This document shows positions 42,442-45,324 of a DNA stretch of 64,000 nt, in pieces. Position numbers and translations under genes: made by a program. Location: NCBI RefSeq assembly GCF_003334355.1, contig NZ_QOWP01000004.1, one strand, 5' to 3'. This DNA is from Escherichia coli. GTDB lineage: Bacteria; Pseudomonadota; Gammaproteobacteria; Enterobacterales; Enterobacteriaceae. The notes beneath the pieces are model-generated. The model searched no databases. It was not told the DNA's origin and saw only the letters and a list, made by a program, of their open reading frames with translations. The first letter of the stretch is position 1. Each line of letters opens with the position of its first letter.

Positions 42442-43569
42442 TTACTGCGGATATTCCTGCAATAAATTGTGTAATGCTTCCGCCATCAGCTCACCACGCC
42501 AGCCGGAAATCAGCTCCGGCAAATTGTTCTGCGGTTTCAGTTTCCAGTGCCAGTTCAGCAGTTGGTTGATTTGCCGACGCGATGCCAGCAATTCGGCGCT
42601 GATCTTATGCGTTTCGCTCACGTCAGTAATCAGCGACTTAATCGCTTTAAACGCTTTACGATAACCAGGCATGTCCATCAGGTTAAGCATCGGCTGCGGT
42701 AAGGCCTCTTCCGGCAATGTCTGCGCTTTTTCCACCAGCGCCAGCAGCGTTTTACCGTGAAAGCGGATTTCGCTACCGGATAAACCCAGGCTGTCCAGTT
42801 CGCCTAAACTTCCCGGCATATAACGCGCTACCGACCACAAATGCTCTTCACGCACGACAAAGTTCACCGCCAGATCGCGCTCTCGCGCCTTGCACAGTCG
42901 CCAGTCGGCTAACAGTTGCAGACAGGCCAGTTGGCGTGTGCGTAACTGCCAGGCATTGGTGATATCACGCCAGGCATCTTCCGGCGCAACAACTTCCTGA
43001 CGACGCATTTGCATCAGGCGGCATTCATCCAGCGCCGCAGGTAGCCAGCCGGAGGCCTCCGTTTCTACCATAAGCTTGGCGGTGATCGGTAACAGATACC
43101 AGACATCAGCCGCTGCGTATTCACACTGACGTTCGGTCAGCGGTCTGGCCAGCCAGTCGGTGCGCGATTCACTCTTGTCCAGCGTAACGCCGGAATACTC
43201 TTCCACCATGGAAGCGAACCCCCATGACATCGGGCGTCCGCAGAAGGCAGCAAGGATTTGCGTGTCAATCAGGGGTTGTGGTAATTCGCCAAAGACATTG
43301 AGGAACACTTCCAGATCTTCACTGCCTGCATGGAGAAATTTTGTGATGGACGGATCGCGCAGGATCGCTTTCAGCGGTGACCAGTCGGTGATCCCGAGAG
43401 GATCAATTAGCGCCAGATGCTCACCATCAAAAAGTTGAATTAAACCCAGCTGCGGGTAATAAGTGCGCGTACGAACAAATTCAGTATCCAGGGCTATCGC
43501 CGGAAAGGCACGGACGGCTTCACACAAAGAAGCCAGCGCATCGTCCGTGGTAATCATTTGGTAATTCAA
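42442..43569 (-). CDS. rnd: Ribonuclease D
   Basis: 375 aa; start codon read as TTG at 43569 (MNYQMITTDD); DEDD exonuclease motif ALDTEF. Confidence 0.93.
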   Translation of the reverse strand: MNYQMITTDDALASLCEAVRAFPAIALDTEFVRTRTYYPQLGLIQLFDGEHLALIDPLGITDWSPLKAILRDPSITKFLHAGSEDLEVFLNVFGELPQPLIDTQILAAFCGRPMSWGFASMVEEYSGVTLDKSESRTDWLARPLTERQCEYAAADVWYLLPITAKLMVETEASGWLPAALDECRLMQMRRQEVVAPEDAWRDITNAWQLRTRQLACLQLLADWRLCKARERDLAVNFVVREEHLWSVARYMPGSLGELDSLGLSGSEIRFHGKTLLALVEKAQTLPEEALPQPMLNLMDMPGYRKAFKAIKSLITDVSETHKISAELLASRRQINQLLNWHWKLKPQNNLPELISGWRGELMAEALHNLLQEYPQ

Positions 43570-43592
43570 ATTGTATTCTCTTTAGTGGGCGT

Positions 43593-43620
43593 CAAAAAAA
43601 ACGCCGGATTAACCGGCGTC
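43593..43620 (-). terminator. Hairpin plus U8 between fadD and rnd: fadD terminator lying just upstream of the rnd RBS
   Basis: Minus strand reads acgccgg-ttaat-ccggcgt followed by TTTTTTTT. Confidence 0.8.
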
Positions 43621-43638
43621 TGACGACTGACTTAACGC

Positions 43639-45324
43639 TCAGGCTTTATTGTCCACTTTGCCGCGCGCTTCGTCACGTAATTCTCGTCGCAAAATTTTTC
43701 CGACGTTAGATTTCGGTAACTCATCACGAAACTCCACCAGCTTCGGTACTTTGTAGCCCGTGAGCTGACGGCGGCAAAAGGTCACCAGTGACTCTTCGGT
43801 AAGCGATGGATCTTTTTTCACTATGAAGATTTTCACCGCTTCACCACTGGAGCCGGAAGGTACGCCAACAGCCGCGACTTCCTGTACGCCAGGATGCTGC
43901 ATGACGACATCTTCAATCTCGTTGGGATAGACGTTAAAACCGGAAACCAGAATCATGTCTTTTTTACGATCGACAATGCGCAGGAACCCTTCTTCATCCA
44001 TCACCGCGATGTCGCCGGTGTGTAACCAGCCATTTTTGATGATTTCATCGGTAGCATCGGGACGCTGCCAGTAACCCAGCATCACCTGCGGTCCTTTGAC
44101 ACAAAGCTCACCCGGTTGACCTGGTGGTACTTCATTATCATCATCATCCACCAGTTTGGCTTCCGTCGACGGCACCGGCAAACCGATGCTACCACTATGA
44201 TAATCAATATCATATGGGTTAACGCTGACCAGCGGCGCACACTCGGTAAGGCCATAGCCTTCCAGCAGATACTGTCCGGTCAGTTTCACCCAACGCTCTG
44301 CCACCACTTGCTGCACTGGCATCCCACCGCCTGCGGAAAGATGCAGACTGGAGAAATCCAGCTGCTGGAACTCTTTATTGTTCAGCAACGCATTGAACAA
44401 GGTGTTAACGCCAGTGATAGCGGTAAACGGATATTTCGCTAACTCTTTTACCAACCCTGGAATATCACGCGGGTTAGTGATAAGCAGGTTCTGCCCACCC
44501 AGTTCGATAAACAGCAGGCAGTTAATGGTCAGGGCAAAAATGTGATACAGCGGCAGTGCCGTTACTACCAGTTCTTTACCTGGATGCAGCAACGGCCCAT
44601 AGGTGGCGTTGACCTGTTCCAGGTTCGCCAGCATATTGCGGTGAGTCAGCATCGCGCCTTTCGCCACACCTGTGGTGCCGCCGGTGTATTGCAGGAAGGC
44701 TAAATCTTCCGGCACCAGTTCGGGTTTGACGTACTGCATCCGGTAGCCGTTATGCAGTGCGCTACGAAATGAAATGGCATCTGGCAGATGGTATTTCGGC
44801 ACCAAACGCTTGATGTATTTAACAACGAAATTGACTACCGTGCCTTTTGCCGTAGATAGCTGATCGCCCATACGGGTCAGAATTACGTGCTGAACGGCGG
44901 TTTTATCAACCACTTTTTCCAGTGTGTGAGCAAAGTTAGACACGATAACAATCGCCGATGCGCCGCTATCGTTAAGCTGATGCTCAAGCTCACGCGGGGT
45001 ATACAACGGGTTAACGTTTACGACGATCATCCCGGCACGCAAAATGCCAAACAGCGCCACCGGATATTGCAATAAATTAGGCATCATCAACGCAACGCGA
45101 TCGCCTTTCTTCAGCCCCAACCCTTGTTGCAAATAAGCGGCAAACGCGCGACTGCGTTCTTCCAGCTTGCGGAAGGTCATCACCTCCCCCATATTCACAA
45201 ACGCAGGCTGATCGGCGTAGCGCGCGACCGACTGCTCAAACATATCTACCAGAGATTGATAACGGTCAGGGTTGATCTCCGTCGGAACGTCCGCGGGATA
45301 ACGGTTAAGCCAAACCTTCTTCAA
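43639..45324 (-). CDS. fadD: Long-chain fatty-acid-CoA ligase
   Basis: ORF 43639..45390; mature 561 aa product begins at the Leu codon (position 45324, non-ATG start) [16 protein letters not shown]-binding motif [11 protein letters not shown]. Confidence 0.93.

Follow-up and report, generated by a model that had tools for sequence, protein, structure and literature searches.

The junction between fadD and rnd, on the minus strand of the 64,000-nucleotide stretch of Escherichia coli DNA analysed here (the window), raises the question of what a strong hairpin followed by eight U residues does when it is placed between two genes that both seem to start at a non-AUG codon. The first of these genes encodes a long-chain acyl-CoA synthetase and the second encodes RNase D, and the element between them might end the transcripts of the one, assist the translation of the other, or do both. 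We are confident that the junction works in the way that has already been described, namely as the terminator of fadD and of the small RNA SroD and as a U-rich enhancer leader of rnd. The UUG starts, the hairpin and its U8 tract, its role in rnd translation and SroD itself are all already known from descriptions that date from 1988 to 2003. What was computed here are the sequence features, the match to SroD, the covariation of the hairpin and the conservation of the non-AUG starts in both genes, whereas in vivo termination, the action of the U tract as an enhancer and the N-terminal protein sequences are given as reported in the literature.

The hairpin-U8 element and its neighbours

The rnd coding sequence (375 codons and a stop; 1128 nucleotides (nt), K-12 b1804) was placed at 42442..43569 of the minus strand from the list of open reading frames (ORFs) and from an alignment with PDB 1YT3, and fadD (561 codons and a stop) was placed at 43639..45324 of the same strand from the ORF list as well as from curated and automatic annotation. 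The naming of both genes in a preliminary description of this DNA was borne out by a 100% identity to annotated chromosomes and by an RNase D alignment with 1YT3 that extends over 375/375 residues, and AMP-binding Pfam families were found in the Salmonella orthologue of FadD. About 3.3 kb around the junction matches many E. coli chromosomes at 100% identity and is present as a single copy in 5,426/5,426 complete E. coli genomes. Variation within E. coli (99-100% identity) is too low to inform. The junction was compared across 80 Enterobacteriaceae species loci taken from genome assemblies, together with Salmonella and seven distant orthologues. The counts given for rnd (n=80 Enterobacteriaceae sequences) comprise 79 fetched loci and the window, and the distant orthologues were reached through representatives at 50% identity, as direct listing of protein homologues gave close relatives only.

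The fadD stop codon (TGA, 43641..43639, minus strand) is separated from the rnd TTG by a gap of 69 nt that holds the hairpin, the T8 run and an AAGAGA motif. The GC-rich terminator hairpin, 5'-AGACGCCGG UUAAU CCGGCGUUU-3', lies at 43599..43621 of the minus strand and has 9 pairs (6 of them G-C), a 5-nt loop and an energy of -14.6 to -14.9 kcal/mol, and the U8 tract lies at 43594..43601 of that strand, with the T run overlapping the last three hairpin pairs. The stem starts 17 nt after the fadD TGA and the T8 ends 24 nt before the rnd TTG. A hairpin with eight U's had been placed at 43593..43620, which is right to within one base. When 3.5 kb was scanned with a generic terminator pattern, 4 sites were found against 3.4 expected from shuffled sequence, so that the pattern class alone is not significant. 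On both strands of the 64-kb window 18 T runs of at least 7 were counted, 4 of which follow a hairpin of -14 kcal/mol or lower, the junction site being one of them.

In 66 distinct Enterobacteriaceae sequences the hairpin is the sole consensus structure predicted by RNAalifold; 97.5% of the alignment cells are paired, none of 500 shuffles (0/500) matches its pairing or its covariation score, and registers slid along the alignment all collapse. Compensatory double changes were seen at 3 pairs, that is, a C-G to U-A change in Cedecea, a G-C to A-U change in Kluyvera and a change at the closing pair. The T run that follows is also retained, as T8 in 30 sequences and as T6 followed by AT in 44, with an overall range of 5-9 and lengths of mostly 6 or 8 (79 sequences). 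In one locus, that of Citrobacter amalonaticus AUH_CA_2023_1 (L010), the fadD frame is broken after 52 codons, which represents a pseudogene or an assembly error, and the rnd leader is intact.

The hairpin was present wherever fadD lies immediately upstream of rnd, as is the case for the 80 Enterobacteriaceae loci, for Salmonella and for two distant loci at about 50% identity (L085 and L086), and the hairpin-U tract was absent upstream of rnd in L084, L088, L089 and L090, in which fadD is not the immediate neighbour. This distribution fits the proposal that the hairpin-U8 is only a terminator of fadD and SroD, its place before rnd being incidental and rnd translation being independent of it. 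Such a reading is nevertheless improbable in our estimation, as it is opposed by the loci in which additional DNA has separated the two genes. In Dryocola boscaweniae (L082), where the fadD-rnd gap is 225 nt, a separate fadD terminator (AAAGCCGGTACTACCGGCTTTTT) lies right after the stop codon and is followed by about 150 nt of extra spacer, and a hairpin-U6 is still retained 32 nt before the rnd TTG. Two Citrobacter loci (L012 and L021), whose fadD-rnd gap measures about 230 nt, carry an inserted segment of about 160 nt that has hairpins of its own and is flanked by a directly duplicated 20-nt hairpin (ACGCCGGGTGAATCCGGCGT), of which the fadD-side copy is without U's (it is there that Rfam calls sroD) and the copy beside rnd keeps its U8. 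A small mobile element with the hairpin as its target could account for the insertion. It is also difficult to reconcile an incidental position with a stem-to-start distance that is fixed at 31-35 nt, or with the in vivo enhancer activity that is reported in the literature (PMC7769764, PMC5934652). Judged by these comparisons, the hairpin element accompanies fadD, yet appears to be held to rnd at a fixed distance.

SroD and termination of fadD transcripts

A covariance-model search (cmscan) placed SroD (Rfam RF00370) at 43595..43680 of the minus strand, covering the fadD stop codon, the 39 nt of coding sequence in front of it and the 3' untranslated region (UTR) as far as the U run. The match scored 115.2 bits, the gathering score being 50, and spans model positions 1-86 of 86, and RF00370 was matched at the same position in Salmonella, Klebsiella, Enterobacter, Kluyvera, Cedecea and Citrobacter. 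The hairpin-U8 element is therefore the 3' end of the catalogued SroD, a point that was absent from the preliminary description. The Rfam model, which was derived from a cloned cellular RNA, itself ends in the U run, and this agrees with the earlier proposal that the element would terminate fadD transcripts, termination in vivo being taken from the literature. SroD has been listed as a 3'-end product of fadD (PMC5874903, PMC8313858). Our literature searches found no function for SroD and no work that treats sroD together with rnd.

An alternative is that the hairpin-U8 forms a regulated attenuator, operating through an antiterminator fold or a bound factor, and that SroD is a prematurely terminated rnd leader rather than a fragment of the fadD 3' end. 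We hold this to be unlikely, though marginally less so than a role confined to termination. Zhang and Deutscher are said to have placed an rnd promoter upstream of the hairpin, and the retention of the hairpin beside rnd in Dryocola and Citrobacter speaks for an attenuator. Against this, no competing antiterminator pairing was seen by inspection, RNAalifold predicts the terminator hairpin and nothing else, a candidate helix that brackets the hairpin and U run improves on shuffles only slightly (mean z -0.8) and is missing from several taxa, and the consensus scan gave no promoter-like site. Immediately upstream of 43680 the same scan returned no match for a promoter of rnd or SroD, and by eye only weak hexamers could be found. 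Furthermore, published summaries describe SroD as 3'-UTR derived and FadR-dependent (PMC8313858).

Two alternative structures were considered and set aside. The outer helix around the hairpin and U run (CGUC...GACG in E. coli, CGCCC...GGGCG in Enterobacter and UGCC...GGCA in Kluyvera), to which the above z value over 55 distinct flank pairs belongs, is missing in L010, L030, L033, L042 and L059. As for an antiterminator or other alternative fold, the downstream GACGCC, a repeat from the 5' arm, is specific to E. coli, with GGGCGC in other genera.

The U tract as a reported enhancer of rnd translation

The U8 tract ends 11 nt before AAGAGA, and at least 5 of its U's are unpaired in the predicted fold; the hairpin-U8 does lie directly 5' of the rnd ribosome-binding region, as had been proposed. 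From the end of the stem to the rnd start the distance is 31-35 nt in 79 sequences, in lengths that are not multiples of 3, so that the leader spacer is non-coding and yet constrained in length. In 1992 Zhang and Deutscher reportedly found that it is the U tract, and not the stem, that is essential. Two papers, both citing Zhang and Deutscher 1992, name the U-rich tract of rnd as a translational enhancer (PMC5934652, PMC7769764). The preliminary description had stated that a structure of this kind has been reported to be required for rnd expression, and of this statement the part that concerns the U-rich tract agrees with the reports, whereas the hairpin as such is reportedly not the element identified in 1992. 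The enhancer role of U8 in rnd translation is taken here from the literature only.

Taken together, the junction would operate as follows. fadD would be transcribed from a promoter controlled by FadR, CRP and ArcA and translated from its UUG behind a strong Shine-Dalgarno sequence, and its transcripts would end at the hairpin-U8 intrinsic terminator, with the last 86 nt accumulating as SroD. In transcripts that read through, whether they originate from the fadD promoter or from one within the fadD 3' end, the hairpin and U8 would form the 5' leader of rnd. There the single-stranded U tract, which lies 24 nt upstream of the rnd start, may serve as an enhancer of ribosome (S1/30S) binding that offsets the weak Shine-Dalgarno sequence AAGAGA and the UUG codon, probably giving a low, set level of RNase D.

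A further proposal is that the terminator serves as a coupling device. Most rnd mRNA would then arise by read-through from the regulated fadD promoter, SroD would be the terminated by-product, and the hairpin itself, in addition to the U tract, would be kept beside rnd in order to set the fraction of read-through. This idea would explain why the hairpin-U tract is fixed 32 nt from the rnd start in Dryocola and Citrobacter despite the extra intervening DNA and, in Dryocola, a separate terminator of fadD, and if it is true the synthesis of RNase D would be tied to fatty-acid and stationary-phase signals. It is doubtful in our view, if somewhat less so than an attenuator.

Several points weigh against the combined terminator and enhancer function that we favour. 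Because the hairpin-U tract is absent in L084, L088, L089 and L090, it is not a universal requirement of rnd translation. The functional steps are drawn from secondary citations, and in the interval from the fadD end to the hairpin no sigma-70-like promoter was returned by the consensus scan. In addition, the Prokaryotic Genome Annotation Pipeline (PGAP) annotates E. coli rnd from a downstream ATG.

The start codon of rnd

The rnd initiation codon is the TTG at 43567..43569 (minus strand), which is the first possible start after the in-frame stop, the next ATG being codon 5 (43557). It is preceded at 7 nt by the weak Shine-Dalgarno-like AAGAGA (43577..43582, minus strand), a nearly invariant block of the alignment that was seen again in the distant loci L085, L088 and L090. 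The gene therefore has an in-frame UUG with a Shine-Dalgarno sequence in the range of 5-9 nt, and is without an upstream in-frame start. Zhang and Deutscher are said to have determined the N-terminal sequence of RNase D in 1988. A review states that rnd starts at UUG (PMC7769764).

Codon 1 is TTG in 76/80 of the Enterobacteriaceae sequences and GTG in the other 4/80, an exchange that preserves the function of a start. Codons 2-4 encode NYQ in 74/80 and vary there at third positions (AAT/AAC, TAC/TAT, CAA/CAG), as is expected of translated sequence. Codon 5, in contrast, is ATT and not ATG in Enterobacter sp. RIT418 (L049), and in distant orthologues at 42-54% identity it is CTG, TTG, TTT or CTC (Leu/Phe), with the N-termini still reading [MV]-[ND]-[YF]-Q-[LF]-I. 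The starts called at the seven distant loci are GTG in three, TTG in two and an ATG at the homologous codon in one; in the seventh (L086) the ATG picked by the gene caller precedes the homologous GTG by four codons. RNase D has 375 residues in the curated K-12 record and in the crystallised protein (1YT3), as well as in the Citrobacter and Salmonella records, and the N-terminus of 1YT3 reads MNYQM..., but it comes from a cloned construct.

It might be argued that RNase D truly begins four codons further on, with the ATG at 43557, and that the TTG is a Leu-like in-frame triplet of the leader. PGAP places the start at that codon, giving 371 residues, in strain OW1E2 (L001 3544..4659) and in thousands of other E. 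coli genomes, and the largest clusters of E. coli RNase D proteins are of 371 residues (P0001, 4,349 members); moreover, ATG is a much stronger initiator, UUG having given 6-8-fold lower expression than AUG in a reporter (PMC3592434). This possibility seems to us extremely remote. The ATG has no purine-rich Shine-Dalgarno sequence of its own, while AAGAGA is properly spaced from the TTG, and a leader triplet would account neither for a first codon restricted to TTG and GTG, followed by codons that in most sequences change at their third positions only, nor for the loss of the ATG in L049 and in distant orthologues that retain N/D-Y-Q. Because of this pattern, the non-coding nature of the spacer, the curated length of 375 residues and the review cited above, the TTG start is, on comparative evidence, the correct one, and the PGAP calls of 371 residues are most likely mis-starts. 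The opening of the rnd frame with TTG at 43569, as first read from the ORF list, thus agrees with the K-12 annotation, the review and the comparative data.

An upstream ATG was also considered as the start of rnd. It lies inside a U6-ATG-GGCGC motif in Enterobacter, Klebsiella and others, is in frame in some species only, and was rejected, the spacer lengths not being multiples of 3. Relative to the K-12/1YT3 protein, the RNase D encoded here carries two substitutions, R226C and D290E (375/375 aligned).

The start codon and leader of fadD

Curated and automatic annotation place the initiation codon of fadD at the TTG at 45322..45324 (minus strand), and its Shine-Dalgarno sequence AGAGGTG (45330..45336, minus strand) ends 5 nt before that codon, with positions -12..-6 being invariant in 68 distinct sequences. 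The start codon was found to be TTG in 58/76 Enterobacteriaceae sequences, GTG in 18/76 and ATG in 0/76, the GTG starts being spread over at least 6 separate clades, and in the distant orthologues L085 and L088 a GTG start follows GAGGAG/GGGAG. The statement that the fadD product begins at a Leu codon at 45324 is therefore upheld by a TTG that is preceded at 5 nt by an invariant GAGGTG and replaced by GTG only. Black and colleagues reportedly determined the N-terminal sequence of FadD in 1992.

The longest ORF of fadD in the ORF list reaches an ATG at 45390 and would encode 583 residues. A start there was rejected. Transcription of fadD has been reported to begin 60 bp upstream of the start codon (PMC3460868), and the ATG, being upstream of that site, is not part of the mRNA; moreover, half of the sequences lack it or have it out of frame, and 13/68 contain in-frame stops.

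A competing upstream in-frame AUG does nevertheless occur in the fadD mRNA, as a second ATG at 45355..45357 (minus strand) lies 11 codons upstream of the TTG and within the reported 60-nt 5' UTR. The UUG start is still upheld by the annotation, and by the N-terminal sequence that Black and colleagues reportedly obtained. This ATG is invariant in 68 distinct Enterobacteriaceae sequences, as is a GGGG located 5 nt upstream of it, and it is absent in two distant orthologues. In the 68 sequences the 33 nt from the ATG to the TTG contain 0 indels and 0 in-frame stops, and their variability falls mainly on third codon positions (summed over six codons, 0.48/0.40/1.74 for positions 1/2/3). The peptide that is encoded before the TTG reads MTTN[TSN][HY]FRG[DE][AV]. 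An invariant ATG in this position hints at a FadD isoform of 572 residues or at some other constraint.

UUG accounts for about 3% of the starts in E. coli K-12, and some 4 adjacent pairs of genes with UUG starts are thus expected per genome, which makes the adjacency itself not improbable. First-base exchanges between T and G have occurred in at least 8 lineages and A was never found among close relatives, from which we infer that both genes have probably been held on weak start codons by selection.

Neighbouring elements

Annotated E. coli chromosomes that are 100% identical to the stretch carry yeaY, fadD and rnd in this order on the minus strand, with yeaX convergent to them. Just after the yeaY stop there is a perfect 11-bp hairpin (45482..45508) that coincides with the probe used for FadR site 2 of the fadD promoter (GAAACAGCGGCTGGTCCGCTGTTTCTG; PMC3460868), and because of this coincidence the likely yeaY terminator and the FadR operator overlap. 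Within the 53 nt that separate rnd from the convergent yeaX (42389..42441) there is an inverted repeat, GAAGCCGGA...TCCGGCTT, which is likely to be a bidirectional terminator shared by the two genes.

Significance and comparison with known systems

The automatic RefSeq annotation gives E. coli rnd 371 residues, in disagreement with the 375 that comparative and curated evidence favour, and has spread through thousands of genomes. The preservation of weak non-AUG starts in both genes, across Enterobacteriaceae and beyond, would be a clear-cut case in nature of low translation initiation being selected for. In addition, a single sequence that appears to act as a terminator, as the 3' end of a small RNA and as a translation enhancer may be a useful benchmark for scanners.

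The element resembles canonical Rho-independent terminators in its GC-rich 9-bp stem, its 5-nt loop, the U8 that directly follows and its closeness to a stop codon. It differs from them in that the ribosome-binding region of the next gene is only 11 nt past the U run, and therefore transcripts that read through reuse the tail of the terminator in a translation initiation region. With SroD (RF00370) it shares the genomic position, the hairpin and the U run, and no difference was found, the junction being the type locus of the family. The same can be said of the U-rich enhancer of rnd that was described by Zhang and Deutscher (1989, 1992), which concerns the same gene, the same UUG start and the same hairpin and eight U's upstream of the Shine-Dalgarno sequence, with no difference in sequence; to this the present comparison adds a tract of either U8 or U6AU throughout the Enterobacteriaceae and a distance of 31-35 nt from the end of the stem to the start codon. 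Among other RNA-metabolism genes of low abundance, the gene for poly(A) polymerase I, pcnB, offers a parallel of another kind, as its expression is limited by a UUG start together with a weak ribosome-binding site (PMC3561954). By analogy, a UUG codon and a weak Shine-Dalgarno sequence may in both cases keep a potentially harmful RNA enzyme scarce, and the added upstream U-rich enhancer is the feature by which rnd differs from pcnB.

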